Notes under the pieces: generated by a model
Databases searched by the model: none
Told to the model about the DNA's origin: nothing
The model's input: the letters and a program-made list of their open reading frames with translations, nothing else
Part shown: positions 10,151-27,043 of the stretch, piece by piece
Position numbering within the stretch: the first letter of the stretch is position 1
Layout: every line of letters begins with the position of its first letter
Translations under genes and position numbers: made by a program
Assembly (NCBI RefSeq): GCF_017876815.1
Contig: NZ_JAGIOS010000003.1
Span: 990,001-1,022,000, forward strand
Source of the DNA: Sinorhizobium meliloti
Lineage (GTDB): Bacteria; Pseudomonadota; Alphaproteobacteria; Rhizobiales; Rhizobiaceae
Direction of reading: 5' to 3'
Length of the DNA: 32,000 nucleotides

Positions 10151-10307
10151 GATCCTACGACAGCCAAGGTACGCTATCCAGGGCACGCCGGAGATGATTG
10201 CCATCCCTGCGGGTCCCTTCTCGCCACAAGACAAAGCGGCGCTTGCTGCGACGATTCTGAATCAGGTATGGAAGCGGCGTAGTTCCTGCAACTTTTTTCC
10301 CGGAAAC

Positions 10308-10336
10308 TTGATAGGTGTAGCACGGAGTGCTATATG
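10308..10336 (+). promoter_or_regulatory. Candidate sigma70-type promoter with embedded operator palindrome for the TA operon
   Basis: TTGATA (10308-10313), a 17-nt spacer, then TATATG (10331-10336). A perfect inverted repeat TAGCAC-gga-GTGCTA (10318-10332) sits in the spacer. The -10 element ends 5 nt before the toxin ATG. Confidence 0.3.
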
Positions 10337-10341
10337 AAGAG

Positions 10342-10701: not shown

Positions 10702-11014
10702 GCGCAAGTTCAAGAGCGATGCCTTTGAGGCGATCCATAGCGCCGTCGAAGACATGTATTCGGCAGGTACCATCGACAAGGAAACCATGAAGACCTTCGA
10801 TGAGACTTGCCTTTCCATCCCGCAGGAGCTGACGCCAAGCGAGATCAAGGCGCTGCGCGAGAACAATCATGTCAGCCAACCAGTCTTCGCGCGCTACCTG
10901 AACACCAGTGCATCAACAGTGCAAAAGTGGGAAACCGGCGCGAAGCGGCCGAGCGGCCCCGCCTTGAAGCTGCTCTCGATCGTCCGGAAACACGGTCTCG
11001 AGATGTTGTCCTAG
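10691..11014 (+). CDS. HTH (Xre/COG2944, NadS/MqsA-like) antitoxin / DNA-binding regulator
   Basis: ATG at 10691 with GGAGA 6 nt upstream. Contains ...TPSEIKALRENNHVSQPVFARYLNTSASTVQKWETGAKRPSGPALKLLSIVRKHGLEML, an HTH plus the conserved C-terminal tail. The longer track ORF (10334..) is an out-of-context N-terminal extension through the toxin gene. Confidence 0.8.
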   Translation: MATKRKFKSDAFEAIHSAVEDMYSAGTIDKETMKTFDETCLSIPQELTPSEIKALRENNHVSQPVFARYLNTSASTVQKWETGAKRPSGPALKLLSIVRKHGLEMLS

Positions 11015-11056
11015 AAGGACACTGCCGCAGAAGGATAAGCGCGCGCAGTTCCAGCC

Positions 11057-13666: not shown

Positions 13667-14088
13667 GCGGCCACCCTGCCAGGAGCGCCGCCATCAAGCC
13701 ACGCGTAAAGCTCCCAGGTCTCGCCGTCAGGTCCGCGGAAATAGAGGCACCGGGCGTTCCACGGGTAGTCGGCCGGGGGATTGACGAAGGTCACGCCATC
13801 TTTTTCGAGGTCCGCATAGAGGACATCTATATCAGCGGGACTGTCGACTCGCACCGCCACGAGCACGGCCGATGCCGACCCTACGGGCACGCGCACATCA
13901 GTGTGGCTTTCGATATGCGACCGCTCCCACAGCGCGAGCGTCAGCCCCGCGCCGATGAAATCGGCAAAGCCTGGTGCGCGGTGCTTGAGTTCGAAGCCGA
14001 GCTTCTGCGTATAAAAGCGGATCGACGCCTCAACGTCGGTGACCAGGATGCAGACATCCTGGATCGGATGGAGTTGCGCGAACTTCAT
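13663..14088 (-). CDS. VOC (glyoxalase/bleomycin-resistance/dioxygenase) family protein
   Basis: 141 aa. Contains ...VCILVTDVEASIRFYTQKLGFEL...FRGPDGETWELY. There is an ATGA overlap with the nucleoside hydrolase gene. Confidence 0.8.
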   Translation of the reverse strand: MKFAQLHPIQDVCILVTDVEASIRFYTQKLGFELKHRAPGFADFIGAGLTLALWERSHIESHTDVRVPVGSASAVLVAVRVDSPADIDVLYADLEKDGVTFVNPPADYPWNARCLYFRGPDGETWELYAWLDGGAPGRVAA

Positions 14089-14097
14089 GGTGCCTCC

Positions 14098-14991
14098 CTA
14101 TTGATCCTTGAGTTCGGCGAACGAGCTGGCGGCCTTCGCGCCGCCGCGCAGCTTGCCGGAAAGCCAGACGCCGAAGACAGTCGCGAGATAGGGCAAAGCC
14201 TGCAGAAGGTCGTGCGGGATCTTGTCGCCGAACATCAATTGCGCCCGGATACCGAGCGCGCCAACGACGGCGAAGAACAGCGCAGCGAAAGTGGCCCCCA
14301 CCGGATGGGAAGCGCCGAAGATGACCGCAGCAAAGGCCATGAAGCCGCGACCCGCCGTCATGCCCTGGGCGAAGAACTGCAGGCTGCCGGCGGCAAGTTC
14401 CGCCCCGCCGATGGCACACAGCACCCCGCCGATCGCCAGCGCCACGAGGCGCATCCGCGAGGGATTGGCCCCGACGCTGCGGGCAGCGAAGGGATGCTCG
14501 CCACAGGCGGCGAGGCGGAGACCGAAGCGTGTGCGGCGGAGCATTACCCACATGCCGAAGACGACGAAAGGCATGGCGGCGACCGCGATCGACAGCACGC
14601 CATAGGCGCCGAAGGCCGGCCCGAGCTTCGGAATGCCGAACGGTGCGGTCACGCTCGCCTGGCTTCCGAAGATCGACTGAACGGCGAGCGCCGTGCCACC
14701 GAGGCCAAGGCCCGTCAGGCCGAGGCCGGCGATGATCGGATTGGCCTTGAGCCTGTCGATGACGAACCAGAGGAGGACGGAGGCAAGCACACAGATGAGG
14801 ATGGCGATGAGGATGGCCGCAACGATGGAGTTGGTCAGCATGATGCCGACGATCGTGGCGCAGGCACCCATGATCATCAGGCCCTCGAGACCGAGGTTCC
14901 ACACCCCTGCCCGCTGCGCAATGACGCCAGCGAGGGTGACGTAGATCAGCGGCGTCCCGGAACGCAGGATGGCGATGATGATCTCGTTCAT
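14098..14991 (-). CDS. BMP-family/nucleoside-type ABC transporter permease (YufQ/NupQ-like)
   Basis: Starts MNEIIIAILRSGTPLIYVTLAGVIAQRAGVWNLGLEGLMIMGA...; multi-span. The ATG at 14991 overlaps the upstream stop (ATGA). The track's 143-aa N-terminal extension is spurious. Confidence 0.9.
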   Translation of the reverse strand: MNEIIIAILRSGTPLIYVTLAGVIAQRAGVWNLGLEGLMIMGACATIVGIMLTNSIVAAILIAILICVLASVLLWFVIDRLKANPIIAGLGLTGLGLGGTALAVQSIFGSQASVTAPFGIPKLGPAFGAYGVLSIAVAAMPFVVFGMWVMLRRTRFGLRLAACGEHPFAARSVGANPSRMRLVALAIGGVLCAIGGAELAAGSLQFFAQGMTAGRGFMAFAAVIFGASHPVGATFAALFFAVVGALGIRAQLMFGDKIPHDLLQALPYLATVFGVWLSGKLRGGAKAASSFAELKDQ

Positions 14992-16025
14992 GACGGGCGT
15001 CCTCCGAGACGCAGCACTTGGTCGACGAGTTTCGACCTTGCTGTGATGAACAGCGCGATCGCCGCATTGATGATGTCGATCGCGGCGGCCGGCAGCCCGG
15101 CCATGATCGGCAGATAGAGCGCCGCCGAGGCAAGGCCGCCGAAAAACACCGCCGCCGCCGCAGTGCCGACCACGGAGAGATTGGCGACGAGTGCGATCAG
15201 GATTGCCGTGAAGCCGTGGGCCGGCAGGAACCCGGACGCAATGCGGCCGTTCGGCCCCATGAACTCGATAGTTCCGGCAAGACCCGCCAGTGCGCCCGAG
15301 ATGATGAAGCTCGACAGGCCGAGCTTCCACAGCCGCGCGCCCTGCCACTCCACCATCGTGCCGTTGCGGCCGGCAAGGCTTGCAAGAACCCCGAATGCCG
15401 TGCGGTTGACAAGGAGCCACATCAAAATGCCGACGGCGGCCCCGATGGCGATGGTGGTCGGGGATATGCCAAGCGAGTCCGAGATGCGGTAGGCCGCGTC
15501 GAGGGGGCGGCTCGATGCCTGCTGACCGGACCCCGAAGGATCCTTGAGCGGTCCCGAGGTCACATAGACCAGAAGCAGGCCGGCCATGAAGTTGCCCATC
15601 AGCGTGGTGATCACCTCGTCAGTGCCGGACCGTAGCCTTAGAAGTCCCGGCCAGAGAGCCCAGAGGGCGCCGCCCAGCGTACCGGCAATGATGAGTGCCG
15701 GGATGACGAGGAAAGCCGGCCCGCCCTTGAATGCCTCGGCGGCGAAGGCAGCGCAGATTGCGCCGACATAGAACTGGCCCTGTGCGCCGATGTTAAAGAA
15801 ACCCGCCCGGAAGGAAATCCCGACGCCTACGGCCGTGATGAACAGTGGCAATGCCCATCTGAGGCTCTGTTCAATCGCACCGCTGCGCAGGAAGGCGCCG
15901 TCGGCCACCGCCCAGAGCATGACCGGCGCATTGTAGCCGGCAAACTGGAACACCAGCGCGCACAGGATGAGCGCAAAGGCGACAAAGATCAGGCTGCGGG
16001 CAACCGTGACGAGACTGTCTTTCAT
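14988..16025 (-). CDS. BMP-family/nucleoside-type ABC transporter permease (YufP/NupP-like)
   Basis: 345 aa, multi-span. Contains ...GFFNIGAQGQFYVGAICAA.... There is an ATGA overlap with the ATPase gene stop at 16022-16025. Confidence 0.9.
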   Translation of the reverse strand: MKDSLVTVARSLIFVAFALILCALVFQFAGYNAPVMLWAVADGAFLRSGAIEQSLRWALPLFITAVGVGISFRAGFFNIGAQGQFYVGAICAAFAAEAFKGGPAFLVIPALIIAGTLGGALWALWPGLLRLRSGTDEVITTLMGNFMAGLLLVYVTSGPLKDPSGSGQQASSRPLDAAYRISDSLGISPTTIAIGAAVGILMWLLVNRTAFGVLASLAGRNGTMVEWQGARLWKLGLSSFIISGALAGLAGTIEFMGPNGRIASGFLPAHGFTAILIALVANLSVVGTAAAAVFFGGLASAALYLPIMAGLPAAAIDIINAAIALFITARSKLVDQVLRLGGRPS

Positions 16026-17602
16026 GCGCTTACCCTCGCAGCCGCATCGGTCATGGCTGCGCCCACCGACGCGATATCGAAGGGCGCGTGGAATTCACCG
16101 TTCACACGTCCCGACAGCATCACCACCACACGGTCGGAGATGTCGAACAGCTCGTCGAGATCAGACGAAATCAAAAGGATGGCGGCGCCGCGATCGCGTG
16201 CCTGCCGGAGCGCCTGCCACACGAAGGCGGTGGCACCGATGTCGAGACCACGCGTCGGCTGAGCCGCGATGATCAGCCTGGCATCGCGATCGACCTCGCG
16301 CGCAAGGATCACCTTCTGGGCATTACCGCCCGACAAGGACCCCGCCTTCTGAGCTGAATTGTGGTAGTGAACGCTCCATTCCCTAAGCGACCGGTCGCAG
16401 GCTTCGCGCACCGCCGAGGGGCGGATCACCTTGAGCAGGCTCCCCTGCAGCAACTCCCTTGCGCTCCAGTTCTGCCAGAGCGAACTCGTGAGGCTGAGAC
16501 CTTCGACGTTGCGCTCGAAGGGAATGATCCTGAGCCCAATCGCGCGACGGGCGGCGAGCGGTTTGCCGGTCACGTCATGGCCTGCAAGCACGATCGATCC
16601 GCCGGCAAGATCGGCAAGGGCGGAAATGGCGCGCACCAGCGTCTTTTGTCCGTTGCCCTCCACGCCTGCTATACCAACGATCTCGCCTGGGCGAATGTCC
16701 AAATCGACGCCATCGAGTGTGATGCCCTCACTGTCGGGCCGCGTGGAGACGGCCTTCAAGGATAGCACGCTCGGACCTTTTGCATTTTTTGGATGACCTG
16801 CGCCCTCGCCTGAGGGCGGTTTCGTTCCGACCAGCGCGTCGCGCTCATGCCGATCAAGAGTCTTGGCAGCCGCTTCACCGACGATCAGGTTGGCGAGCCT
16901 CTCGGCCGAAACCTCGGCTATCGGAAGCGGCCCCTCGACCTTTCGGCCGCCGCGCAACACCGTTACCGTGTCAGCGATGCCGAGCACCTCACGGATCTTG
17001 TGCAGGATCAGGATGACGGTAACGCCACGTTCCCTGAGGCGGCGGACACGAGCAAACAGCATGTTTATGCCGGAGGGCGAGAGCACCGCGGTCGGCTCGT
17101 CGAGGATGAGCACGCGCGCATCCATCACGAGCGCCCTTGCGATCTCGATGCCCTGTTGGGTCTCGATCGGCAGGTCGCGGATCCGCCGGTTTAGGTCAAC
17201 TTGGACGTCGAGGTCGGCGATATGCCCCCGCCATCTTTTGGCGAGCCCCTTGCGGCTGTAAATACCACCTTTGCCAGTGGCGCCGAACTCCATGATTTCC
17301 GCGACCGTGAAGGATGGCGGCAGGGCGAAACTCTGATGAACCAGCTCCACACCCGCCGTTCGGCTCACGCTGACCTGGCCGGTGCGAATTTCGTGGCCCA
17401 TCACGTCGACGGCACCGGCAGTCGGTTGAACGAGCCCCGCAGCGACGCGGGCGAAGGTTGTCTTGCCGGCGCCGTTCTGGCCCACGACCGCGTGGATCTG
17501 GCCGGGAACAAACGAAACGGCAACGCCCGACAGTGCAGTCACGTCTCCGAATTTCACGGTGACATCCCGGCACTCCAGCGCAGGCTTCAGAAGGTTGCAC
17601 AT
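16022..17602 (-). CDS. ABC transporter ATP-binding protein with two fused nucleotide-binding domains
   Basis: First NBD: GQNGAGKTT ... LILDEPTAVL. Second NBD: GVEGNGQKT ... LSGGNAQKVILARE ... IAAQPTRGLD. The start is uncertain between 17602 (MCNLLKP...) and 17632. Confidence 0.9.
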   Translation of the reverse strand: MCNLLKPALECRDVTVKFGDVTALSGVAVSFVPGQIHAVVGQNGAGKTTFARVAAGLVQPTAGAVDVMGHEIRTGQVSVSRTAGVELVHQSFALPPSFTVAEIMEFGATGKGGIYSRKGLAKRWRGHIADLDVQVDLNRRIRDLPIETQQGIEIARALVMDARVLILDEPTAVLSPSGINMLFARVRRLRERGVTVILILHKIREVLGIADTVTVLRGGRKVEGPLPIAEVSAERLANLIVGEAAAKTLDRHERDALVGTKPPSGEGAGHPKNAKGPSVLSLKAVSTRPDSEGITLDGVDLDIRPGEIVGIAGVEGNGQKTLVRAISALADLAGGSIVLAGHDVTGKPLAARRAIGLRIIPFERNVEGLSLTSSLWQNWSARELLQGSLLKVIRPSAVREACDRSLREWSVHYHNSAQKAGSLSGGNAQKVILAREVDRDARLIIAAQPTRGLDIGATAFVWQALRQARDRGAAILLISSDLDELFDISDRVVVMLSGRVNGEFHAPFDIASVGAAMTDAAARVSA

Positions 17603-17751: not shown

Positions 17752-18804
17752 TCAGAGCGTGGTGTTGAACGGAACCTTGATGGAGCCATCAAGAATACCG
17801 GCACGCGCCTTTTCGACCTCGACCAGCGCTTCCTTCGCCCTGGCGTTCAGCTCAGGCGGCCCCTGTTCGGCGAAGACGGGCGAGGGAATGAAGTCGATGA
17901 CGCCGGTCCCAAGGCCCGTATGCTCGTGCGTGCCGCCCTTCCATTCAGGACCGACGGCCTTCGTTGCCTCGTTGTAGAGCGAGACGCCGAAATCGAGGCC
18001 GACGATGGAGATGAGCGACTTCGGACCGAGTGCGTACTGTCCTGGCGCAAGACAGCTCACCATGCGGCCTTCCTTTTCGTTGGCTGCGGCGATAATGCCG
18101 CCGTCGGTGGCGGCTGCGTCCGTCTGAATGTAGTCGATGCCGTCATTGTACATCTGGGCGGCGATTTCCTGGCCCTTTGCAGGATCCTGGAACGAGCCGG
18201 CAAAGGCGGCGATGACGCTGGCGTCCGGCTTGATCGAGTGGACGCCGGCTTTGAATGCGTTGAAATCGGCGTTGAGCGGCGGGATCGAAACACCTCCGAT
18301 GAAGCCGGTCTTGCCCGTCGTTGTCATCTTGGCCGCAAAGACGCCAGAGAGATAGCAGCCGAGATAGTAGTCGTAGGACACCGTCACCACGTTCGGGATC
18401 GCCGGCTCGAAGGGGTCGGCGAACAGCTGGATCCATTTGGTACCGGGATAGGACGGCGCCAGCGCCTTGAAGGGCTCGGCCACTTCGTTGAAGGTGGAGA
18501 TGATGATCGCAGCACCTGCGTCACCGAGCGTGCGGTAGATGGTCTCGTAGGTCGCGGGGTCCTGCGCGTAGATGGCACGGTGCTCAAACCCCTTCTCTTC
18601 CGACAGCTGCTTGAGCTTGGCGATCATCTGATCGACCGGGCCGTTGTCGCCGGCGGCCTGCGTGTGGACCAGTGCGACCAGCCCACCGGACGCCCTGGCA
18701 AATTCGGGCACAATGCTGGCGGCAAGACCGAGCGCAGCGGCGCCCGCGCTCGCCTGTAGGAATGTGCGACGGTGCATTATGTGTTGTGAAGCCTTGTCAG
18801 TCAT
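17752..18804 (-). CDS. BMP-family (PnrA/Med-like, nucleoside-type) ABC transporter substrate-binding protein with Tat signal
   Basis: MTDKASQHIMHRRTFLQASAGAAALGLAASIVPEFARA carries the twin-arginine motif. The BMP-type body follows (...GFIGGVSIPPLNADFNAFKAGV...). AGAGGGA lies 6 nt upstream of the ATG at 18804. Confidence 0.9.
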   Translation of the reverse strand: MTDKASQHIMHRRTFLQASAGAAALGLAASIVPEFARASGGLVALVHTQAAGDNGPVDQMIAKLKQLSEEKGFEHRAIYAQDPATYETIYRTLGDAGAAIIISTFNEVAEPFKALAPSYPGTKWIQLFADPFEPAIPNVVTVSYDYYLGCYLSGVFAAKMTTTGKTGFIGGVSIPPLNADFNAFKAGVHSIKPDASVIAAFAGSFQDPAKGQEIAAQMYNDGIDYIQTDAAATDGGIIAAANEKEGRMVSCLAPGQYALGPKSLISIVGLDFGVSLYNEATKAVGPEWKGGTHEHTGLGTGVIDFIPSPVFAEQGPPELNARAKEALVEVEKARAGILDGSIKVPFNTTL

Positions 18805-18883: not shown

Positions 18884-19204
18884 TCAAAGCGGCGGCGAAT
18901 AGGATGCAGGGTTCATGATCATCACCTCCTGCTTCTGGATCGCATCGAGCGCCCAGACCTCGGAGATGAATTTTTTCCAATCCGGATCGGCGTACATGGC
19001 CGAGCGGCGCGCCTCGCGATCCGCAAGGCTGTCGTAGGCCCACAGGAGAACGGTGGTGTGAAGCGTGCCGAGCTCCGAAACGTAGAGGCCGACGAATTTG
19101 TTGAGATGACGTTTCTGCACCGGGAGACCGTCAGCCTCGTATTTCTTCATCCACTTGTCGACCGTGCCGGGCTTGAACGTATAGGTGCGGTGTTCGAGGA
19201 TCAT
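18884..19204 (-). CDS. NIPSNAP family protein
   Basis: 106 aa. MILEHRTYTFKPGTVDKWMKKYEADGLPVQKRHL...LHTTVLLWAYDSLADREARRSAMYADPDW is typical of NIPSNAP. An AAGGGAG RBS is present. Confidence 0.8.
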   Translation of the reverse strand: MILEHRTYTFKPGTVDKWMKKYEADGLPVQKRHLNKFVGLYVSELGTLHTTVLLWAYDSLADREARRSAMYADPDWKKFISEVWALDAIQKQEVMIMNPASYSPPL

Positions 19205-19216: not shown

Positions 19217-20842
19217 TTAGCTGTTCAGGATCAATTCGGCGCATTTCTCGCCGATCATGATGGCGGGCGCGTTGGTGTTGCCGCTCGAGATGATCGGCAT
19301 GATCGAGGCGTCGGCGACACGCAGACCCGCGATGCCATGGACCTTGAGCTGCGCATCCACCACCGCCATGGGATCGTTACCCATCTTGGCGGTGCCAACA
19401 GGGTGGAACGTCGTCATGGCCGTGGCCCGTAGCCAGCGGGTCAACCCAGCGTCGTCGTTTGCTTCCGGCCCGGGCGCCAGCTCCTTGCCGCGATAGCGGT
19501 CGAAAGCCCTCTGGCCGACGATGTCGCGCGTCAGCCGGATGCCGTCAATCATCGTGCGGACGTCAAAATCGGACTGGAGGTAGTTCGCCTGGATCTTCGG
19601 TTTGTCGGTGGGGTTCGCCGACCGTAGCGTGATCTCGCCGCGGCTCGCCGGATTGACGGGTCCGACCCGGATAGTGAAGCCGTGATCTGCCTCGACCGCC
19701 CGCTTCTTGGCGAAGGGATTGGGGAAATGCAGGTTGGCGGTCTTTTCCAGCGCCGGCATGAAATGCAGCTGGATGTCGGGCGAGACGAGGCCGTCGTTCG
19801 AGCGAATGAAGGCACCCGCCTCGTAGGGAAACGTCGTTGTGATACCCTCGCCGAACAGCATCCCTTGCGCGACAGCAGGAATGAGCTTGTCGGCGCGCAG
19901 GTCGCCGAACAGCGTGACCGGCTCGCGGCATTCCCAGCTCATGACGCAGTCGACGTGATCCTGGAGGTTCTTGCCGACACCGGGAAGATCGAGCGTCGGC
20001 TTGATGCCGAGGGCACTCAGTTCGTCTGCCGGCCCGATGCCGGAAAGCAACAGCGCCTTGGGCGAGTTGACCACGCCGGCGGACAGGATGACTTCGCGAC
20101 CTGCACGCGCGAGGCCGGGCCTGCCGTCCTTCAAATATTCGACACCGCAGGCCCGGCCGCCCTCGATGAGGACACGCGTCGTTTCAGCGCCCGTCAGTAC
20201 GGTAAGGTTCTTTCGGCCGAGCGCCGGGCGCAGGAAGGCCCAGGATGTGGACCAGCGCTTGCCCTTGCGGATGGTAAAATCGTATCGGCCAAACCCTTCC
20301 TGGGTCACACCGTTGAAGTCGTCGTTCTGAGGATAGCCGGCCTGCAGTCCTGCCTCGCAGAACACGTCCATCAACGGATTGTGGCCACGGGCACGGCAGA
20401 CAGTGAGCTCGCCGTCCACATTGTGAAATTCCCCATTGCGCTGGATATGCGCTTCCGAGCGGCGAAATGCCGGCAGGACTTCGTCATAGGACCAGCCGGG
20501 CAGGCCGAGCTGCGCCCAGCGGTCGTAGTCGTGGCGATTGCCACGCACGTAGATCATGCCGTTGATCGTGGAGGTTCCGCCCAGCACCTTGCCGCGCGGC
20601 CAGTAGAGGGACCGGCCGTTGAGATAGGGCTCGGGTTCCGTGTGATAGTGCCAGTTGTAGATGCCCGAATGGAAAAGCTTGCCCATTAGCATTGGCAACC
20701 GAAAGAGCGGATTTTGGTCCTTGCAGCCAGCCTCGATGAGCAACACGCGGTTCGCAGGGTCCATCGACAGACGGTTCGCGAGAACGCAGCCGGCCGAACC
20801 CGCGCCGACGATGATGAAATCATATTCCGGGGTAGACGCCAT
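19217..20842 (-). CDS. GMC-family FAD-dependent oxidoreductase (choline-dehydrogenase-like)
   Basis: YDFIIVGAGSAGCVLANRLS...RVLLIEAG is the FAD GxGxxG motif. Contains GKVLGGTSTINGMIYVRG and the C-terminal ...HPVGTAKMG...VVDAQLKVHGIAGLRVADASIMP. Confidence 0.9.
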   Translation of the reverse strand: MASTPEYDFIIVGAGSAGCVLANRLSMDPANRVLLIEAGCKDQNPLFRLPMLMGKLFHSGIYNWHYHTEPEPYLNGRSLYWPRGKVLGGTSTINGMIYVRGNRHDYDRWAQLGLPGWSYDEVLPAFRRSEAHIQRNGEFHNVDGELTVCRARGHNPLMDVFCEAGLQAGYPQNDDFNGVTQEGFGRYDFTIRKGKRWSTSWAFLRPALGRKNLTVLTGAETTRVLIEGGRACGVEYLKDGRPGLARAGREVILSAGVVNSPKALLLSGIGPADELSALGIKPTLDLPGVGKNLQDHVDCVMSWECREPVTLFGDLRADKLIPAVAQGMLFGEGITTTFPYEAGAFIRSNDGLVSPDIQLHFMPALEKTANLHFPNPFAKKRAVEADHGFTIRVGPVNPASRGEITLRSANPTDKPKIQANYLQSDFDVRTMIDGIRLTRDIVGQRAFDRYRGKELAPGPEANDDAGLTRWLRATAMTTFHPVGTAKMGNDPMAVVDAQLKVHGIAGLRVADASIMPIISSGNTNAPAIMIGEKCAELILNS

Positions 20843-20845: not shown

Positions 20846-21697
20846 TCACCATGCGATGGGCCGGCCGCCCATCGCCTCCAGATAGGAATTGCAGAGAAGG
20901 AAAGGATTTTCCCGGCCGAGCACCTTGTCGGCGAAGGCGGGATGCTCGCGCTGGACATAGCCGACATGGCCCGCATGCCCCTCGCGAATGCTTGCTTCCG
21001 CAAGAATGTCCGCAGCCGCCGCGCCGAATCCGAGGAACACGACCGGCTCACCCCGCGCCACCAGCATATCGATCACACGCAGCATCAAGGGTCGCCAGAA
21101 AGGAAGGTGCCCGCGCGACTGATGCGGATCGATATCGACCCGGAAGCGCGAGAGCGTCAGCGACGCGTTGAGCAGCAGCACGCCCTCGCCCACCCAGCGG
21201 CCGGCAATCACTCCGGGTGCCTCGAACGGGCCGGCGGGGTCGCACAAGAGACGTCGCACGTCGGGCCAGCGGTCGAAGCTTTGCGCCAGACTCTCATCGC
21301 CGAGACGCGCGGCCGCAATGAGCTGCATATAGGCACGGATGCTCTTGGAGAACATCTTGTCCAGCTCGTTCCACGCGGCCAGGTTGCCGGCCTCGAAGGC
21401 GCGACCTGTTGCCAGACCCGGTTCCGGATAGGGATCCTGGCCAAGGATCATGCAATGGACGCCGTTCGGCGCGATGCCGTCGAAGGCGGCGAGGACATGG
21501 GCACCCCGGGGCTGGCCGGGAAAGGTCTTGCCGCGGCGTGCGGGAAATATCGGCTCCCAGGCCTCCAGATCGAGCCCGGCATCGATGCGGTCGAAATCCT
21601 CTTCGACGGGTCCGAGCGCATCCCGCCAGGCATGCGGCAGGTCGGCTTGCCAGCCGGCGAGCGTTTCTGCCATCGCCTCTCTCAGTCGTGCCGGCAT
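20846..21697 (-). CDS. Uracil-DNA glycosylase superfamily protein, family-1 (UNG)-like, first gene of the operon
   Basis: 283 aa from the ATG at 21697 (GGGGAG upstream). Contains ...PIFPARR...AFDGIAPNGVHCMILGQDPYPEPGLATGRAFE...GVLLLNASLTL...REHPAFAD. By eye these align with the UNG motifs GQDPYH, HGLxFS, LLLNxxLTV and HPSPLS. The track's 146-aa N-terminal extension crosses the AT-rich intergenic region and is spurious. Confidence 0.75.
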   Translation of the reverse strand: MPARLREAMAETLAGWQADLPHAWRDALGPVEEDFDRIDAGLDLEAWEPIFPARRGKTFPGQPRGAHVLAAFDGIAPNGVHCMILGQDPYPEPGLATGRAFEAGNLAAWNELDKMFSKSIRAYMQLIAAARLGDESLAQSFDRWPDVRRLLCDPAGPFEAPGVIAGRWVGEGVLLLNASLTLSRFRVDIDPHQSRGHLPFWRPLMLRVIDMLVARGEPVVFLGFGAAAADILAEASIREGHAGHVGYVQREHPAFADKVLGRENPFLLCNSYLEAMGGRPIAW

Positions 21698-21740: not shown

Positions 21741-21811
21741 CTGACCAAAGTGTCAACTTTTAAAAGGAAAAAAATGACGAATGGGTCAGTTTTTTTTGAC
21801 CAGATCGTCGG
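21741..21811. promoter_or_regulatory. Three RutR-box-like imperfect palindromes in the divergent promoter region
   Basis: CTGACCAAAGTGTCAA (21741-21756), ATGACGAATGGGTCAG (21774-21789) and TTGACCAGATCGTCGG (21796-21811) resemble the E. coli RutR consensus TTGACCAnnTGGTCAA. They lie in the AT-rich 231-bp gap between the divergent starts at 21697 and 21929. Confidence 0.4.
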
Positions 21812-21928: not shown

Positions 21929-22570
21929 ATGGCAACGGCAGCACGGGATCCAGAGGAGCGCATCCGCGAACGCAACATGCGCCTCATCATCAAAACTGGG
22001 ATCGAGATATTCGCGCGCAAGGGCTTTGATGGTACGCGGATCGCCGAGATCGCCGAGGCCTCGGGCCTGCCCAAGGCCAACGTCTATTACTATTTCTCTT
22101 CTAAGGAGGAGATCTACAGGGCCATCATTGCGCACCTCATTACCAGCTGGGACGAGGCGCTAAAATATATTTCGCCCGAGCGTGAGCCGGCGGAGGCCTT
22201 CCGGCTCTACATCAAGGCAAAGCTCGACTACACGCGCAAGAACATCGCCGAGTCCCGGCTCTTCGCCAGTGAGATCATTCAGGGAGCGCGGTTCCTGAAG
22301 AAGAAGGATCGCGACCATATGCGCCAGGTCACGGATGCGCATGTGGCGGTCGTGGAGGGTTGGATTGCGGCCGGAAAGTTGCTGCCGGTTGATCCGCGCC
22401 ACCTGTTCATCATGCTGTGGGCTTCAACGCAGTTTTACGCGGATTTTGAGCCCATCGCCGCCGACGGGCTAAGGAAGGCGCGTTTGAAAGCGGAGGATTA
22501 TGAAGCAGCCGCAACGACAATTACGGAGACGATCCTGAAAGGCATTCTACCCGGCCCGGTGCACAGTTGA
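21929..22570 (+). CDS. TetR-family transcriptional regulator, RutR-like
   Basis: N-terminal HTH: FARKGFDGTRIAEIAEASGLPKANVYYYFSSKEEIY. C-terminal ...GWIAAGKLLPVDPRHLFIMLWASTQFYADFEP closely resembles the RutR ligand-domain segment, by eye and from memory. Confidence 0.8.
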   Translation: MATAARDPEERIRERNMRLIIKTGIEIFARKGFDGTRIAEIAEASGLPKANVYYYFSSKEEIYRAIIAHLITSWDEALKYISPEREPAEAFRLYIKAKLDYTRKNIAESRLFASEIIQGARFLKKKDRDHMRQVTDAHVAVVEGWIAAGKLLPVDPRHLFIMLWASTQFYADFEPIAADGLRKARLKAEDYEAAATTITETILKGILPGPVHS

Positions 22571-22921
22571 ATCGATGCCGGACAGAGTCGCCTCTTGGGA
22601 CCCTCTGGCCGAACGCGCCTACCGACGTGATGGACTTGATGGACTTGATGCGATTCGATCGGCCCTTCTCTTCATTCACCCCCGTCTTTCGAGAAGCGCG
22701 AATTAGCCTTGAGGAAACGGTGGGACGAAACGTTGTTGGTGGATCGCAAGGGCGGTCGACCGGGACGGGCATCGGGGTGCTTGACGACAAACGGCAAGAG
22801 TCCATCCGCAAGACCATCATCAGATACTACCTAAAGTGTAATCGACCGACACTTTCGCTGTGTTGGTCCGGGATGTGCAAACGAACTGCATGTCGGCCGG
22901 GCTTAACGCCCCCGTCCAATT

Positions 22922-22937
22922 GATACCTTATGCGATC
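22922..22937 (+). repeat. 16-bp recurring motif, copy C (GATACCTTATGCGATC)
   Basis: 15/16 identical to copies A and B. It lies at the outer boundary of the IS110-family remnant's 3' non-coding region. Confidence 0.6.
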
Positions 22938-23556
22938 TTCTGTAACGGGCTTTGCGTCAATCCCTTGTGCGCTTAATCCGTCGCCGAGGGCTTGCTTCTG
23001 TCCGCAGTCGGAGCTTTGCCGCTGCTCTATGGTGTCTGCTGAGGACCGGTTGGCCAATCTTAGAAGCGCAGTCACCGCGTGCTGCTGATCGCATAGCGGC
23101 CTAACCCATCCATCGTCCCGGCGAAGGGACCTTGCTGCGGAGGGCTGATGGCTGTGCCCGTCCGAAAGCCTGTCTCGTCGTCTCCTCCGATCAAGCCGCC
23201 AGGGCTGGCGCTCCCTTATGAGCAATGAAGTTCTATCCCTGAGTATGCAATGCAACACCACCGCCAGCTTGCGGGCCAGCGCCACGCGCGCCTTTTTGGG
23301 GCCGGCACGTCTTGCGACCGCCAACGCCCAACCCTTCAGATCGGAGCCTTTGACCGGTCGCGTCAGGATTGACATTGGCCGCCTCGTAGAGCGCGGTTCG
23401 CACGCTGCCATCGCCGATCTTCGAGATGCGACCGCTATGATCGGTCTCGCCCGACTGACACTTCTTCGGCGTCAATCCGAAGTGCGGCCCCACCGCGCGC
23501 GAGGAGCGGAATCGCTCCGGCGCATCGACGGCCGCCACAAACGTCAGCGCCACCAG
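22938..23556 (-). pseudogene. IS110-family transposase remnant: C-terminal half only, frameshifted, plus about 280 nt of 3' non-coding DNA
   Basis: LVALTFVAAVDAPERFRSSRAVGPHFGLTPKKCQSGETDHSGRISKIGDGSVRTALYEAANV continues after a frameshift near 23375 as ILTRPVKGSDLKGWALAVARRAGPKKARVALARKLAVVLHCIL. This is the conserved IS110 C-terminal domain. The N-terminal DEDD domain is absent. Confidence 0.7.
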
Positions 23557-23557
23557 G

Positions 23558-23698
23558 AGCAACGGCCAGGGGGAAGGCGAAATCAACCGCCTGAAGGCAA
23601 TCAAGCGTGCAATCTATGGCAGAGCTGGCCCGGAGCTGCTCAGGGCACGCGTGCTGCCGCTTGACCAAAATCGCCACCACACAAAGTGAGGAAGACCC
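23558..23698 (+). pseudogene. ISL3-family element 3' end (last ~43 codons of the transposase plus terminal repeat)
   Basis: SNGQGEGEINRLKAIKRAIYGRAGPELLRARVLPLDQNRHHTK* matches the conserved ISL3 C-terminus (SNGxxEGxINRLKxxKRxxYG). It is followed by GAGGAAGACCC, which resembles ISL3 ends (GGxTCTTCC in reverse complement). It abuts the IS110 fragment at about 23557. Confidence 0.5.
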
Positions 23699-23828
23699 CA
23701 TTTATCTGCCAAGCGACAGGTCAGCAGGCAGAGGAGCCGCTTGGTGATGATTAGAAGGGATGGGGGGTGGATGACGATGGGGGGCGGCAGCAGCAGCCCG
23801 GCCCTAAAAAACGGCGCGCGGCGCTCCG

Positions 23829-24974
23829 TCAGAGTGTCGAGACGGCTTCCGCGCCGAGAGCCTTGAGTTGCTCGACCGAGGCAATCCCCATCAACGCAAG
23901 ACTGATCGAAATCTCGCGCTCGAGGATGGCAATCACCTCGGCCACCCCCGCCTGCCCGGCGGCCGAGAGGCCGTAGGCATAAGCCCGGCCAAGCATCACG
24001 CCGTCTGCGCCGAGTGCGATCGCCTTGATGACGTCCGCGCCGCGGCGGATACCGCCGTCAAGCATAAGGCAGAAGTCGGTTCCCACGGTGGCGCGAATGC
24101 TGGGCAGGGCTCGGATCGTGCTCGGGGCACCGTCGAGCTGGCGTCCGCCGTGGTTGGAAACCACCACCCCATCGCAGCCGAGATCGCGAGCGCGCACAGC
24201 ATCAGCGGGCGTGAGAACGCCTTTGATCACGAGCTTGCCCGTCCAGCGTTCGCGCAGCCAGGCGATGTCCTTCCACGACAGCGTCTTGTCGATTCGGCGC
24301 GAGAGATTGGCCGCCTGCTCCAGCGCGCCGCGACCGAATTCCGGCCGGTGCTCGATAGCCCTGACCGACGGCATGCCGGCAAGGACCACCTCTGCAAGCC
24401 AGCGCGGCTTCAGCGCGAGGCGCGCGAAGAGGTCCGGCGTCACCCGCGTCAGCGATCGGAATCCGTTTCGCACGTCCCGTTCGCGAATGCCCGTAATGGC
24501 GGTGTCGACCGTTACGAACAGGGTGTCGACGCCGGCGTATTCTGCCGCTCGCAGGAATTCCTCGCAGAGCGAGCGATCCTCCAGCACATAGAGCTGGAAA
24601 TGCAGCGGCCCGTCCGTGACGATCCGAAGGTCGGCGAGTGAGGCGATGGAAAAGGTTGATAAGCAGAAGGGGATGCCCGCGGCATGCGCCGCCCGCACGG
24701 CCTTGACCTCGCCCTTGCCGGAATAGAGGCCGAGGAAGCCAACCGGCCCGAGCATGAACGGCAGGGGATGACGTTTCCCGAGATAGGCCGTGGCAAGGTC
24801 CTGCGGCTGCGGCTCGACCAGCACGTTCTGGCGCAGGGTTAGGCGGGAGAAGTCCGAGCGATTCGCCCGCATCGTCTCCTCCTCGAAGGAACCGCCGTCG
24901 ATATAGTCGAAAAAGATCTTCGGCAGCCGCCGCCGGGCGAGATCGCGAAAGTCGTCGATGTTGACCAGCGCCAT
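23829..24974 (-). CDS. FMN-dependent alpha-hydroxy-acid dehydrogenase/oxidase (LldD/glycolate-oxidase/mandelate-dehydrogenase family)
   Basis: 381 aa. Contains ...LPKIFFDYIDGGSFEEETMRANRSDF...MLGPVGFLG...VVSNHGGRQLDGAPSTI...DGGIRRGADVIKAIALGADGVMLGR. Confidence 0.9.
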   Translation of the reverse strand: MALVNIDDFRDLARRRLPKIFFDYIDGGSFEEETMRANRSDFSRLTLRQNVLVEPQPQDLATAYLGKRHPLPFMLGPVGFLGLYSGKGEVKAVRAAHAAGIPFCLSTFSIASLADLRIVTDGPLHFQLYVLEDRSLCEEFLRAAEYAGVDTLFVTVDTAITGIRERDVRNGFRSLTRVTPDLFARLALKPRWLAEVVLAGMPSVRAIEHRPEFGRGALEQAANLSRRIDKTLSWKDIAWLRERWTGKLVIKGVLTPADAVRARDLGCDGVVVSNHGGRQLDGAPSTIRALPSIRATVGTDFCLMLDGGIRRGADVIKAIALGADGVMLGRAYAYGLSAAGQAGVAEVIAILEREISISLALMGIASVEQLKALGAEAVSTL

Positions 24975-24975
24975 G

Positions 24976-26268
24976 TCAGCCGTTGTCCGGATCGATTGTG
25001 TCGATGAAGCGGGAAATTAAATCGTCTCCCGCAACCGGCTCGCTTCCGGCCATCACCGCGACGGAGAAGCCTATCAGGGAGGAAATCGCGTTATGGGTCG
25101 TTGCGCCAGCCCGCAGGTTCATCACCAGCGTTGGGCAGAGGAAAAGGCCAAGCCGGATGACCCGGCGCCAGTCGGCCGGAAGCATGCCCCGCGCCTTCAG
25201 TTCGCTAAGCAGCGGACGCCAAAGTGCCTCTGCCTTTACGTCGAGAAGCGCCCGCCTGACAGGACTCGGCGCGAAATCGGTGGTAACGCGGAGCAGAGCG
25301 CCATCAAGCACTGCGCTTGCCTTGTAGCGCCCGGCCGCCATGGCGGGATCGTAGAGCCACAGCGGATGGGCAAGGATGTTGTGGAAGGTCGTCTTCACCT
25401 CGGCGAGCAATGCAGGAATGTTCTCGCCGGCAAAGGCGGGATCGAAGAAGGACAAGTGTGCCCCGCCATCGCGCTCCTCGTACCAGACATTCGCATTGTG
25501 GGCGTCGCCATGCGCGACCACTCCCCCGGCATCCGCCAGCCGCGCGGGGTTCAGCCGCTCATGCGCGGCATCGAACAGGGCGCCGATACTGTCGCTGTAT
25601 TCGATGCCGTTCACCACAAACCGGCAGCGCGAGAGCGTCTCCCAATCGAGTGTCAGGTTGGGAAAGGCAAAGTCCTTGCCGACATAGAAGCTTGCCATGC
25701 GCCCGCCCGGATAGCTTGCTGCCGAAGGGTCTACGAGCCTTTCGTAAAACAGACGGTGGATCGGCTCGGCCGCAACCTCCCTCGCACCCACCGTATGCAG
25801 TGTGGCAAGATAGACCTTCAGCACGGCTTCGCTCAGCCGGCGTTCGGCCTCAACCGCCCTTCCCCTCGCCGCGGCATCGTCATTCAAGTCCAATGCCCTC
25901 AGCACATCTGAAAAACGCGGATCGGTGCGTCGGCGATAGACGAGTATCTGTTCGCCAGGAAGCACCGACATCAGCAATGGCTGGTCCACCGGCAGGCCGG
26001 CGCGCGCCAGGATGTCGGCGCGATAATATTCGCCGCTCATGGCCTCTTCTCCCTCTTCCTGGTGGAACTTGAAGAAGAAGGCGCCGTCCTCCGTCTCGAA
26101 GAAGCCATTGAGCGAATTGAGGCTGTACTGGTCGTGATTGATCGCGACGTTCCTTGCCTCGATCCTGAAGAGATCACGCAGCAGCTCGGCCAGCAACTGT
26201 TCCGCCTTGCCGTCTCCGGTTTTGGCGACCTTTCTTATTTCCGCGGTGCGGCTCGTGGGCTGGCTCAT
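24976..26268 (-). CDS. Aminoglycoside-phosphotransferase-fold small-molecule kinase-like protein (unassigned substrate)
   Basis: 430 aa from the ATG at 26268. It has an N-lobe FFFKFHQEE, the catalytic loop VAHGDAHNANV (HGDxHxxN) and the metal-binding segment SFFDPAFAG. The stop lies 1 nt before the downstream FMN dehydrogenase start. Confidence 0.65.
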   Translation of the reverse strand: MSQPTSRTAEIRKVAKTGDGKAEQLLAELLRDLFRIEARNVAINHDQYSLNSLNGFFETEDGAFFFKFHQEEGEEAMSGEYYRADILARAGLPVDQPLLMSVLPGEQILVYRRRTDPRFSDVLRALDLNDDAAARGRAVEAERRLSEAVLKVYLATLHTVGAREVAAEPIHRLFYERLVDPSAASYPGGRMASFYVGKDFAFPNLTLDWETLSRCRFVVNGIEYSDSIGALFDAAHERLNPARLADAGGVVAHGDAHNANVWYEERDGGAHLSFFDPAFAGENIPALLAEVKTTFHNILAHPLWLYDPAMAAGRYKASAVLDGALLRVTTDFAPSPVRRALLDVKAEALWRPLLSELKARGMLPADWRRVIRLGLFLCPTLVMNLRAGATTHNAISSLIGFSVAVMAGSEPVAGDDLISRFIDTIDPDNG

Positions 26269-26311
26269 GGCGTTCTTTCCGGATGGGTCTTTCTGGGCAT
26301 AGGAACGGCGG

Positions 26312-27043
26312 TCACTTGCCGCCGTGCAGATAGCGGCTGCCGAGCGAGTAGCGGCTGCCGACATAGGTGAAGGTATTGACGGTTGCGACGACCGGCCCTG
26401 ACCAGGTCTTGCGGTGCAGGATCAGGCAGCAGTCACCAGGGCGAACGTTCAGCAGGCGAGCCTGTTCAGCATTGGCCGGCAGAGCGCTGATGAGATGCTC
26501 CACCTCGGTCAGCGGCGTGGCGTTCTGCAGGTAGTCATAGGTGGCGACGGTAGTAAAATCCTGGTCGGCATAGCCGGAAACGAGGTTGGGATTGACGTAA
26601 CGTTCCTCGAGCTGAACCGGCAGGTCGTTCTCGAAATGAATGACGACGGAATGATCGACGGGCTTCACCGTCTCGAACTCGAAGGCGAGCAGAAGCTCCG
26701 GTTCCGGTCGCGCGATCCGCTCGAGCACGACCACCTCGGCCCGGTGCCGGCTACCGCGCGTCTTGATCTCGGTAATGATGTTGCTGATCTCGATCAGCGT
26801 CGACCGGGGCCTGGGCGGCGCAACGAAGGTGCCCACCCCCTGAATGCGGCGCAGATGCCCCTCGGAGGTGAGTTCCCGCAGCGCCCGGTGAACGGTCATG
26901 CGCGAGACACCGAGTGCCGAAACGAGTTCGTTCTCCGAGGGAAGCCGGCTGTTGCGCGCCCATTTGCCGCTGCCGATGTTACCGAGGACGAAGTCCTTTA
27001 CCTTCTCGTAGAGGGGCGATGCGGAATCTGAAAGCGTATTCAT
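26312..27043 (-). CDS. GntR-family transcriptional regulator, HutC/FarR subfamily (UTRA effector domain)
   Basis: PLYEKVKDFVLGNIGSGKWARNSRLPSENELVSALGVSRMTVHRALRELTSEGHLRRIQGVGTFVA is a HutC-type winged HTH. It is followed by a UTRA-like C-terminal domain. Confidence 0.9.
   Translation of the reverse strand: MNTLSDSASPLYEKVKDFVLGNIGSGKWARNSRLPSENELVSALGVSRMTVHRALRELTSEGHLRRIQGVGTFVAPPRPRSTLIEISNIITEIKTRGSRHRAEVVVLERIARPEPELLLAFEFETVKPVDHSVVIHFENDLPVQLEERYVNPNLVSGYADQDFTTVATYDYLQNATPLTEVEHLISALPANAEQARLLNVRPGDCCLILHRKTWSGPVVATVNTFTYVGSRYSLGSRYLHGGK

Follow-up and report, generated by a model that had tools for sequence, protein, structure and literature searches.

The uracil-DNA glycosylase (UDG) superfamily is regarded as a group of DNA-repair, DNA-binding enzymes, and its family-1 members (UNGs), such as Escherichia coli Ung, human UNG and Mycobacterium tuberculosis Ung, are the closest described relatives of the protein reported here. 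In the human enzyme, Ser169 makes the 5′-phosphate contact and Ser270 the 3′-phosphate contact (PMC8730318). The gene in question lies on the replicon pSymA of Sinorhizobium meliloti, at positions 20846–21697 (minus strand) of the window, by which we mean the whole stretch of 32,000 nucleotides that was analysed and to which all positions below refer. It encodes a 283-aa protein with a predicted family-1 UNG fold, an apparently intact uracil pocket and DNA-binding loops that have degenerated, and it sits in a catalytic operon as its first gene, whereas family-1 UNGs stand alone. The protein resembles these enzymes in the fold (Foldseek E 2e-12, TM to target up to 0.76), the GQDPY motif, the Tyr guarding C5, the stacking Phe, the uracil-reading Asn, the His-Pro of motif B, the 5′-phosphate Ser and a C-terminal PI(D/A)W. 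It differs from them by being 55 aa longer (283 aa as against approximately 225–229 aa, much as the initial annotation of this DNA had estimated), with insertions behind the Phe and ahead of the Asn motif that have no counterpart in the PDB, and by the replacement of the Leu wedge, the equivalents of Ser270 and Ser273 and the Ser of the Gly-Ser loop with Ala, Gly, Asp or Glu.

Fold, uracil pocket and DNA-contact loops

An identical copy of the gene in the record CP130049.1 bears the PGAP label ‘uracil-DNA glycosylase’ (WKL34081.1), and genes of the UNG-like clade carry this name in all genomes examined. The protein is recognized by NCBIfam ung with an E-value of 5.5e-19; its score against the equivalog TIGR00628 is 68.9 bits, short of the cut-off of 185.75, and it likewise falls far under the cut-offs of the remaining four NCBIfam ung models. 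A Pfam search at E ≤ 0.01 returned no match for the protein, and PF03167 is matched weakly or in a borderline manner by some of its homologues. UNG chains in the PDB are matched with E-values of 9e-12 by the single sequence and 4e-26 by the family profile. When the AlphaFold2 model (pLDDT 93.3) was compared with the PDB using Foldseek, all 50 matches listed were family-1 UNGs, with TM to target ranging from 0.62 to 0.76. Despite the Pfam result, the protein is, by its predicted fold, a member of the UDG superfamily, and the sequence comparisons indicate that it is a divergent family-1 UNG homologue, not an orthodox UNG.

Motif A, GQDPYP (residues 86–91; 21425–21442, minus strand, as are all the motifs below), is invariant in 38 of 38 clade members and comprises the water-activating Asp88 as well as Tyr90, whose counterpart in UNG packs against C5 of uracil. 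The stacking Phe101 stands in TGRAFE (21392–21409), between Arg99 and Glu102, both of which are invariant and specific to the family, and Asn177, the reader of the uracil edge, belongs to an invariant LLLN motif (21167–21178). Altogether, Gly86, Gln87, Asp88, Pro89, Tyr90, Pro91, Phe101, Asn177, His252 and Pro253 do not vary among the 38 unique clade sequences, and Asp88 and His252 are nearly invariant also in distant family members associated with other partner genes. The predicted uracil-recognition and water-activation set (Gln-Asp-Pro-Tyr, Phe, Asn and His) is complete and invariant in the clade. The four motif correspondences to UNG that had initially been proposed by eye hold both in the profile-to-PDB alignment and when the protein is aligned to the E. 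coli and human UNGs with MAFFT; the catalytic Asp, His and Asn line up with those of UNG, and the AlphaFold model supports the fold. The family-1 hallmarks found in the protein are motif A (GQDPY), the stacking Phe, the LLLN Asn and the three-dimensional fold.

Two other hallmarks, motif B (HPSPLS) and the loops pinching the DNA backbone, are not preserved. Motif B is degenerate, reading HPAFAD (20927–20944), with His252-Pro253 alone surviving and the other positions substituted. The position of human Ser270 is occupied by Ala in all 38 clade members, that of the intercalating Leu272 by Ala or Gly in 36 of the 38 (the leucine loop had rightly been singled out as altered), and that of Ser273 by Asp or Glu in 32. 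In the Gly-Ser loop the Gly is retained and the Ser is changed to Asp or Glu in 29 of the 38 sequences, and a longer segment takes the place of the Pro-rich loop. The sole contact kept in the backbone-pinching loops is the invariant Ser119, aligned with human Ser169 and forming part of S119-I-R121 (21335–21343), in which Arg121 is a further invariant residue specific to the family. The median pI of the clade is 5.3. Judging from the alignment, the parts with which UNG grips and wedges double-stranded DNA are lost or turned acidic in the clade, the pocket being invariant.

The additional residues, as located with MAFFT, comprise about 20 at the N-terminus, seven after Phe101 and about 24 at approximately positions 128–160, so the extra sequence claimed to lie between the Phe and Asn motifs is real and amounts to some 30 residues. 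The family-specific region (residues 103–165; 21203–21391) combines the SIR motif with two additions, namely the seven-residue insert, in which Gly104 and Trp109 do not vary, and an extra helical stretch some 24 residues long. A PDB search with residues 102–236 yielded an alignment starting only at about residue 148, in the conserved core; the inserted part, residues 102–147, matched nothing, and we thus rejected the idea that the insert is common to the Nitratifractor UNG or to any solved UNG.

Gene neighbourhood, its conservation and its putative control

The UNG-like ATG is preceded, 7 nt upstream, by AGGGGAG. The gap of 3 nt claimed between the UNG-like gene and the next one is exact (TGA-ACC-ATG), and the latter gene (19217–20842; this and the following genes are all on the minus strand) encodes a 541-aa GMC flavin oxidoreductase of the choline-dehydrogenase subfamily. 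The broad subfamily model NF002550 is the only one that the enzyme satisfies (658.9 versus 605); a choline/betaine role was rejected, since its score against the BetA equivalog TIGR01810 (581.6) is under the cut-off of 732.1. Its relatives include pyridoxine 4-oxidase and HMF oxidase. A 106-aa protein of the NIPSNAP family is encoded 12 nt past the GMC stop codon (18884–19204), followed by an ABC system consisting of a BMP/PnrA-family substrate-binding protein (17752–18804 with the PGAP start, the ORF possibly reaching 18870), an ATPase with two ATP-binding cassettes (16022–17602) and two permeases of the BPD_transp_2 type (14988–16025 and 14098–14991). Genes of a variable tail come last, specifying a VOC/glyoxalase-fold protein (13663–14088), a RihA-like pyrimidine ribonucleoside hydrolase (12728–13666) and an amidohydrolase of the TRZ/ATZ-type deaminase group (11205–12731), instead of which the OCS116 loci have a CDA-fold deaminase. 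The initial annotation spoke of a ‘metabolic operon’; the operon context stands, and ‘pyrimidine uptake and utilization operon’ is the better description. An anti-phage defence system was also considered and rejected, as PADLOC gave no match for the UNG-like, GMC or NIPSNAP proteins.

Synteny was analysed in 42 loci defined by UNG-like homologues with at least 44% identity and coming from Alpha-, Beta- and Gammaproteobacteria (Rhizobiales, Paracoccaceae, the OCS116 cluster, Variovorax and gammaproteobacterial MAGs). The GMC gene directly follows the UNG-like gene in 41 of them, the aligned segments of the two being 5–15 nt apart in most loci; a divergent RutR-like TetR gene is present in 40, the NIPSNAP gene in 38 and the BMP-type transporter in 36. 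Identity is higher for the GMC and NIPSNAP proteins (60–87%) than for the UNG-like protein (44–72%). In the gammaproteobacterial loci the UNG-like/GMC/NIPSNAP trio is kept and the ABC system is replaced by an NCS1 permease and a TonB-dependent receptor. The transporters beside the trio are of nucleoside or nucleobase type. The tail genes differ between loci (amidohydrolase-type deaminase, CDA-fold deaminase, Rih hydrolase, VOC protein), and the tail enzymes are classical feeders making forms of uracil, namely a ribonucleoside hydrolase or a deaminase, the latter with either of two unrelated folds. The original argument from context, that the gene heads an operon, is borne out more strongly than could be read from a single locus, with the arrangement kept in the 42 loci from three proteobacterial classes and with operator-like boxes at conserved positions. 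Full-text searches of the literature found no paper on this operon or on the UNG-like clade, nor any biochemical or genetic results on one of its members.

The TetR gene, divergent from the operon (21929–22570, plus strand), encodes a RutR-like regulator that matches the E. coli RutR structures with an E-value of 3e-38 and retains Trp77 and Trp167 of RutR. Its score against the RutR equivalog TIGR03613 is 172, below the cut-off of 368, placing it outside RutR proper, and among the pocket residues Leu74 is changed to Ile and Leu78 to Asp. The Leu78 position, which sets the specificity for uracil versus thymine, is occupied by Asp in nearly all ABC-linked loci and by Val in the gammaproteobacterial ones. 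The label of a ‘uracil-sensing-type regulator’ is thus apt as far as the likeness to RutR goes (the E-value and both Trp residues) and too strong in naming the ligand: because of the Asp at Leu78, we do not assume that uracil is the effector. Between the two divergent genes there are RutR-box-like palindromes, namely TTGACACTTTGGTCAG (minus strand; 21741–21756), which lies about −59 from the UNG-like start at a position conserved in other genomes, another with a 10/14 match (21774–21789) at about −92, and one with an 11/14 match (21796–21811) that partly coincides with the −35-like hexamer of a promoter-like site directed towards the TetR gene. Boxes of the form TTGAC-N6-GTCA(A/G) occur at about −60 and −94 in most loci, and their density is about 5 per kb in the control regions versus 0.54 per kb across the loci overall.

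The UNG-like gene is accessory and resides on a megaplasmid island: it was found in only 34 records of the plasmid collection, none of them labelled strain 1021, and the cluster is flanked by IS and plasmid-maintenance remnants. Its natural carriers include the strains SM11, Rm41 and BL225C. Distant members of the UNG-like family (31–38% identity) have neither the GMC nor the NIPSNAP gene, so the operon link defines the clade and not the whole family. These distant members of the approximately 285-aa family are paired with non-repair partners, either deaminase-type amidohydrolases or a fused uncharacterised domain. The latter, an N-terminal domain of about 240 aa without a Pfam match, occurs in the genuine fusions P0153 and P0165 and corresponds to a separate upstream ORF in the locus L045; hhalign revealed no relation between it and NIPSNAP. 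Two other apparent fusions, P0132 (with MoCoBD_2) and P0122 (with a C-terminal GMC fragment), look like assembly or deletion artefacts and were not used as functional clues.

Possible role of the UNG-like protein

The UNG-like protein has probably been co-opted for the metabolism of small pyrimidine compounds instead of serving chromosomal repair, because its gene always heads a conserved uptake and breakdown operon under RutR-like control. On balance we lean towards regarding it as a family-1 UDG paralogue that acts outside DNA repair as the first enzyme in an inducible operon for the uptake and use of pyrimidines. The conserved pocket would accommodate the uracil ring of some small pyrimidine imported into the cell, and water activated by Asp88 would hydrolyse the bond at N1; the protein would then be a hydrolase of N-glycosides, acting on a substrate of the uracil nucleoside type that the Ca-dependent Rih hydrolases refuse. 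Candidate substrates include a deoxy- or sugar-modified uridine, or a 5′-anionic form such as (d)UMP or a 5′-oxidised uridine made by the GMC enzyme, the idea of a 5′-anionic substrate being suggested by the retention of the 5′-phosphate Ser, the presence of a new invariant Arg two residues further on and the disappearance of all 3′-side contacts. The GMC oxidoreductase and the NIPSNAP protein may then process the product of their partner or prepare its substrate.

Some observations count against this proposal. The full catalytic set of a DNA glycosylase is intact and compatible with uracil removal from ssDNA or oligonucleotides, and Leu-loop changes, as in UNG Leu272 mutants, weaken activity without abolishing it. 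If uracil release were the only reaction, an obvious sugar enzyme (a kinase, aldolase or mutase) would be missing from the operon, and some operons would then hold two N-glycosidases. The convergence of the feeder enzymes on free uracil and the nucleobase-type permease of the gammaproteobacterial loci would be explained no less well by a free base as substrate. A substrate of the 5-hydroxymethyluracil or thymine type, oxidised by the GMC enzyme, also came into consideration, prompted by the pyridoxine 4-oxidase and HMF oxidase among the GMC relatives and by the Asp at the thymine-excluding position of the TetR protein; this idea is weakened by the invariance of the C5-guarding Tyr90.

Were free uracil the substrate, the base would sit in the UNG pocket and the water activated by Asp would add to the ring (by hydration of C6, or by attack at C2 and ring opening) and no glycoside would be hydrolysed; the GMC enzyme would oxidise a carbinol or aldehyde hydrate (e.g. 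uracil hydrate to barbiturate), with NIPSNAP as a tautomerase or helper, in a new short route of uracil breakdown. We consider this unlikely, even if it would explain why the conserved residues are exactly those needed for uracil binding and for water activation near N1/C6, why every variable tail enzyme is a classical uracil producer, whether a Rih hydrolase or either of the two deaminase folds, and why only the trio, a transporter and the RutR-like regulator are constant, several loci holding just the trio and a transporter. The NCS1 permease of the gammaproteobacterial loci, being of nucleobase type, and the lack of a sugar-handling enzyme in the operon point the same way. The idea comes, however, purely from chemical reasoning, and we know of no precedent for ring hydration or opening in the UDG superfamily. 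The invariance of Ser119, Arg121, Arg99 and Glu102 points to the binding of some group in addition to the base, nucleosides are the best-known ligands of the BMP family of binding proteins, and a barbiturase/ureidomalonase-like gene is not consistently nearby in the loci examined. Quite unlikely, too, is the broader notion that the UNG-like, GMC and NIPSNAP proteins make up a previously unknown, cofactor-light route of free-uracil breakdown by ring hydration or opening, which would be the fourth beside the reductive, oxidative and Rut pathways.

The protein might instead be a genuine DNA or oligonucleotide uracil glycosylase, whose expression alongside pyrimidine uptake would protect DNA against rising pools of uracil and dUTP, or which would remove uracil from fragments of DNA that have been imported. 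The fully intact UNG catalytic set, the database annotation and the fact that the closest solved structures, among the matches listed, are all DNA glycosylases speak in its favour, and the Nitratifractor UNG (PDB 5x3g) and the Bradyrhizobium protein BdiUng reportedly act on DNA in spite of an altered motif B. We nevertheless find it rather improbable, given the loss of the wedge Leu and of the 3′-phosphate Ser, the acidic residues in two backbone-pinching loops and the acidic pI. It is difficult to see why a repair gene should be fixed in first position, 3–15 nt from the GMC gene, in 41 of 42 loci from three classes; the UNG-like gene is accessory and located on a megaplasmid island, and the transporter is of nucleoside type and not one for DNA uptake. 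Moreover, an S. meliloti base editor without Ugi gave a changed editing outcome, an indirect hint that the species has a further UDG that is sensitive to Ugi. A non-catalytic uracil-binding subunit, acting as a sensor, or delivering substrate or lending specificity to the GMC flavoenzyme, would suit the close spacing to the GMC gene, with its probable translational coupling, and the higher conservation of the GMC and NIPSNAP proteins, and UNG does bind free uracil as its product. Retained catalysis is, however, argued for by the invariance of Asp88 and His252 in all 38 clade members and its near-persistence in distant members with other partners, and with P0122 looking artefactual no UNG-like/GMC fusion was found; we deem such a role very improbable.

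Should the preferred reading, that of a metabolic enzyme of pyrimidine utilization, be true, the UNG-like clade would represent a repair fold recruited to small-molecule metabolism, and a systematic mis-annotation as ‘uracil-DNA glycosylase’ would be corrected. It would also provide the first functional context for a bacterial NIPSNAP protein together with a choline-dehydrogenase-like GMC enzyme. The operon could reveal an unrecognised use of pyrimidine nucleosides or uracil by soil, rhizosphere and marine Proteobacteria, and the clade offers a natural test case for separating the UNG features that serve base recognition from those that serve DNA handling.

Comparison with other described systems

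The regulons of RutR and PydR (the Rut and the reductive pathway) resemble the present system in having a TetR regulator with a YcdC-type ligand domain, both ligand-stacking Trp residues and RutR-like palindromic operators; the operon described here differs in containing no Rut or Pyd enzyme and in its regulator, with Leu78 changed to Asp and a score under the RutR equivalog cut-off. Another rhizobial UDG with GQDPY is BdiUng (Blr0248) of Bradyrhizobium diazoefficiens, which is said to lack the classical motif B, to be insensitive to Ugi, to prefer ssDNA and to have a family-4-like fold. Since BdiUng is absent from the PDB sequence matches of the UNG-like protein and of its profile, we do not place the two in the same family.

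The UNG of Nitratifractor salsuginis (PDB 5x3g/5x3h) is likewise a longer-than-usual family-1 homologue and the only PDB UNG matched by the family profile in one continuous stretch (profile positions 63–263, E 1.5e-21). It is reportedly a Ugi-insensitive DNA glycosylase with extra secondary-structure elements. Its identity to the UNG-like protein is about 21%, with the insert region giving no significant alignment, and we know of no link between it and a GMC/NIPSNAP operon. With regard to the proposed reaction, the nearest parallel is provided by the Rih/IU-type ribonucleoside hydrolases (RihA, UriH), which also hydrolyse the N-glycosidic bond of a free pyrimidine nucleoside; they differ in having an unrelated, Ca2+-dependent fold and mechanism that requires the 2′,3′-diol of ribose. 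If the Rih protein (12728–13666) and the UNG-like protein are both active in one operon, their substrates must differ.

The UNG-like gene and its uracil pocket

The ORF at 20846-21697 on the minus strand, encoding a UNG-like protein of 283 aa, is a real gene, as the initial annotation had assumed: the motif AGGGGAG lies 7 nt before its ATG, and an identical gene (WKL34081.1 in the record CP130049.1) was annotated by NCBI's pipeline and labelled 'uracil-DNA glycosylase'. The protein has no Pfam match at E<=0.01 and is matched weakly by the NCBIfam ung models (TIGR00628: E 5.5e-19, 68.9 bits against a cut-off of 185.75). In a PDB sequence search all matches at E < 0.1 are family-1 UNGs (best E 9e-12), and a profile built from 31 diverse relatives reached an E-value of 4e-26. 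A confident AlphaFold2 model was obtained from the alignment of these 31 relatives (pLDDT 93.3, pTM 0.91); the 50 PDB matches listed by Foldseek consist entirely of family-1 UNGs, of bacterial, human, cod and herpesvirus origin (E as low as 2e-12, TM to target 0.62-0.76). Taken together, the sequence matches, the model and the structural search show the protein to be a true, divergent homologue of family-1-type UNGs.

The motif correspondences proposed in the initial annotation are all borne out by the alignment with E. coli and human UNG and by profile alignments. GQDPY is kept (with Asp88 and Tyr90), Phe101 aligns with the UNG Phe, LLLN with Asn177 is aligned, and so are His252-Pro253 and the C-terminal Trp; Ser119 aligns with human Ser169. 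GQDPY and the individual residues Phe101, Asn177, His252-Pro253, the C-terminal Trp and Ser119 are invariant among the 38 non-identical members of the operon-sharing clade. In human UNG, Leu272 is the intercalating wedge, Ser273 is a Ser of motif B, and the Ser of the Gly-Ser loop pinches the backbone. The leucine loop is indeed altered, as initially noticed, with Ala or Gly at the Leu272 position in 36 of the 38 clade members; Asp or Glu occupies the Ser273 position in 32 and that of the Gly-Ser loop Ser in 29. The position of human Ser270, a 3'-phosphate contact, is Ala in all 38, and human Ser169, the counterpart of the invariant Ser119, is a 5'-phosphate contact (PMC8730318). The Pro-rich loop has given way to a longer stretch in which Gly104 and Trp109 are invariant, and new invariant charged residues lie around the pocket, with Arg99 and Glu102 flanking the stacking Phe and Arg121 two residues past Ser119. 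The extra sequence recognised earlier between the Phe and Asn motifs includes about 24 mostly helical residues with no counterpart in any solved UNG. Clade members have a median pI of 5.3. The uracil pocket and the activated water are thus strictly selected, unlike the elements with which UNG pinches duplex DNA and wedges into it, two of which have turned acidic.

The operon, its conservation and its regulator

The GMC flavin oxidoreductase gene starts 3 nt past the UNG-like stop codon, as first described (the junction reads TGA-ACC-ATG). It is followed on the same strand by a NIPSNAP gene 12 nt further on, a BMP/PnrA-family ABC transporter (binding protein, double ATPase and two permeases) and a tail encoding a VOC-fold protein, a RihA-like pyrimidine ribonucleoside hydrolase and, last, an amidohydrolase of the TRZ/ATZ-type deaminase group. 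A simple consensus scan found no stem-loops in the gaps between the operon genes; the few weak ones that it did find fall within coding sequences, and their number (12, with 7.9 expected) is close to chance. The nearest relatives of the GMC enzyme, which scores below the BetA equivalog cut-off, are choline dehydrogenase, a chloramphenicol-oxidising enzyme and alcohol oxidases, which act on primary alcohols.

A genome-collection scan, look-ups of encoding contigs and a tblastn census yielded 42 loci with a UNG-like protein at least 44% identical to that in the window. The GMC gene lies directly downstream in 41 of them, a RutR-like TetR gene is upstream and divergent in 40, and NIPSNAP and the BMP ABC transporter are present in 38 and 36, respectively; the gap between the aligned UNG-like and GMC segments is 5-15 nt in most loci. 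Exceptions are a locus without the GMC gene (L029), one without NIPSNAP (L024) and two with truncated NIPSNAP genes (L017 and L040), all on MAG contigs. The hosts include Rhizobiales (Rhizobium, Mesorhizobium, Brucella/Ochrobactrum, Kaistia, Labrys, Bauldia), Paracoccaceae, the marine OCS116 cluster, the betaproteobacterium Variovorax and gammaproteobacterial MAGs. The gammaproteobacterial loci keep the UNG-like, GMC and NIPSNAP trio and the regulator, with an NCS1 nucleobase-type permease, a TonB-dependent receptor and an MFS protein instead of the ABC system. A luciferase-like oxidoreductase (TIGR03842, F420/FMN-type) adjoins the TetR gene in these loci (L036 4437-6863, L005 2133-3134), as does a class-III aminotransferase in L036; both may belong to the same pathway in these hosts.

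The operon tail is variable, with an amidohydrolase-type deaminase in 13 loci, a VOC protein in eight, a Rih hydrolase in six and no tail gene in several. The slot held by the amidohydrolase-type deaminase in Brucella, Mesorhizobium and Variovorax is occupied in OCS116 (L094 13926-14396; L095 11229-11699) by a 156-aa CDA-fold deaminase (dCMP_cyt_deam_1), a non-orthologous replacement. The swap between two unrelated deaminase folds in a single slot argues for a tail that deaminates a cytosine form, yielding a uracil form.

The uracil-sensing type of regulator initially suspected is upheld as to family: the divergent gene at 21929-22570 encodes a RutR-like TetR protein matched over its full length by E. 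coli RutR structures (E 3e-38). The 231-bp control region contains three 16-bp sites (21741-21756, 21774-21789 and 21796-21811), each agreeing with the RutR box TTGACCAnnTGGTCAA in 10-11 of 14 positions. Most other loci have TTGAC-N6-GTCA(A/G) palindromes about 60 and 94 nt ahead of the start codon of the UNG-like gene, where their density is about 5 per kb compared with 0.54 per kb across the loci overall. RutR binds uracil through Leu74, Trp77, Leu78 and Trp167 (PMC4325133); both Trp residues are kept in the TetR regulator and Leu74 is conservatively replaced, whereas the thymine-excluding Leu78 is Asp in nearly all ABC-linked loci (residue 75 of the window's protein) and Val in the gammaproteobacterial NCS1-linked ones. 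The effector is thus probably a planar pyrimidine, not necessarily plain uracil, and the substitutions suggest that it differs from plain uracil and between the ABC-linked and NCS1-linked operon types.

Accessory setting and possible function

Sinorhizobium meliloti megaplasmids of the pSymA type, e.g. that of SM11 (NC_017327), match the window at 100% identity. For the UNG-like gene, only 34 plasmid records gave a match, 31 from Sinorhizobium and three from Ensifer, and no record among these is labelled as strain 1021. Just past the last operon gene (~7945-11015) lie an IS30-family transposase, RepB/ParB partition-gene fragments and a RelE/ParE toxin with an antitoxin-like regulator, placing the operon in a mosaic, mobile-looking stretch of pSymA. 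At its other edge, beyond the TetR gene, ORFs at 22830-23700 (minus strand; no annotated CDS in CP130049.1) resemble by eye IS110-type transposase fragments, e.g. '...GLTPKKCQSGETDHSGRISKIGDGSVRTALYEAANV...', and are probably a decayed insertion sequence. A separate small cluster follows at 23829-27043 (minus strand), comprising genes for an LldD-like FMN-dependent alpha-hydroxy-acid oxidase, a 406-462-aa protein that matches kinases (APH) only faintly and lacks NCBIfam hits, and a regulator of the GntR/UTRA type. In a base-editing paper on S. meliloti, an editor without the Ugi inhibitor gave an altered editing outcome, an indirect hint that the species has another, Ugi-sensitive UDG.

The best-supported reading is that the clade was recruited from DNA repair to a pathway of pyrimidine uptake and utilisation. 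The intact catalytic set would suit a genuine DNA or oligonucleotide glycosylase, but the missing wedge, the acidic loops, the accessory setting and the strict placement in the operon make this a poor fit. In the favoured model the protein is a hydrolase that would bind the uracil part of a small compound taken up by the cell and use the Asp88-activated water at N1, acting as an N-glycosidase on a substrate of uracil nucleoside type outside the range of Rih hydrolases. We speculate that this substrate is 5'-anionic, e.g. (d)UMP or 5'-oxidised uridine, which would fit the retention of only the 5'-phosphate Ser, the new invariant Arg beside Ser119 and the oxidation of primary alcohols by the GMC kin. 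The main rival within metabolism is free uracil as the substrate, which would require the UNG-like fold to perform new chemistry on the ring; it is favoured by the tail enzymes all being uracil producers, by the lack of a sugar-handling enzyme in the operon and by the nucleobase-type permease in some loci.

The wider family and known UNGs

An exhaustive search for relatives returned 1,015 cluster representatives, those of ~280-295 aa forming a continuum down to ~30% identity. The same invariant residues and a degraded motif B occur in 31 aligned sequences, 25 of them from this continuum. Members below ~40% identity lack the GMC and NIPSNAP genes, but several still have non-repair partners. A large, guanine deaminase/TRZ-ATZ-like amidohydrolase of deaminase type lies directly upstream of the UNG-like gene in L041 (4995-7982) and L043 (6297-7949), and another follows one of two UDG-like genes 4 kb apart in L089 (12077-14861). 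Two proteins (P0153 and P0165) carry an N-terminally fused domain (residues 1-~240) with no Pfam match and no relation to NIPSNAP by hhalign; it recurs as a separate ORF just upstream in L045 (7215-7985; 35% identity, E 2e-42) and is a second, independent 'partner' of the UNG-like fold in a distant clade.

Full-text literature searches found no papers on this UNG-like/GMC/NIPSNAP system, whose predicted function is of real interest for research on both DNA repair and nucleotide metabolism. A nearest characterised 'odd' relative, the Nitratifractor UNG, matches the family profile (E 1.5e-21) and is reportedly a DNA enzyme; the same is said of another, Bradyrhizobium BdiUng, which was not among the PDB matches of the protein or the profile. 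To our knowledge, neither resides in such an operon. Judged by its sequence, the protein in the window resembles family-1 UNGs at the level of base recognition, but departs from them in three defining features, namely motif B (including the intercalating Leu), the loops that pinch the backbone, and the equivalog score.
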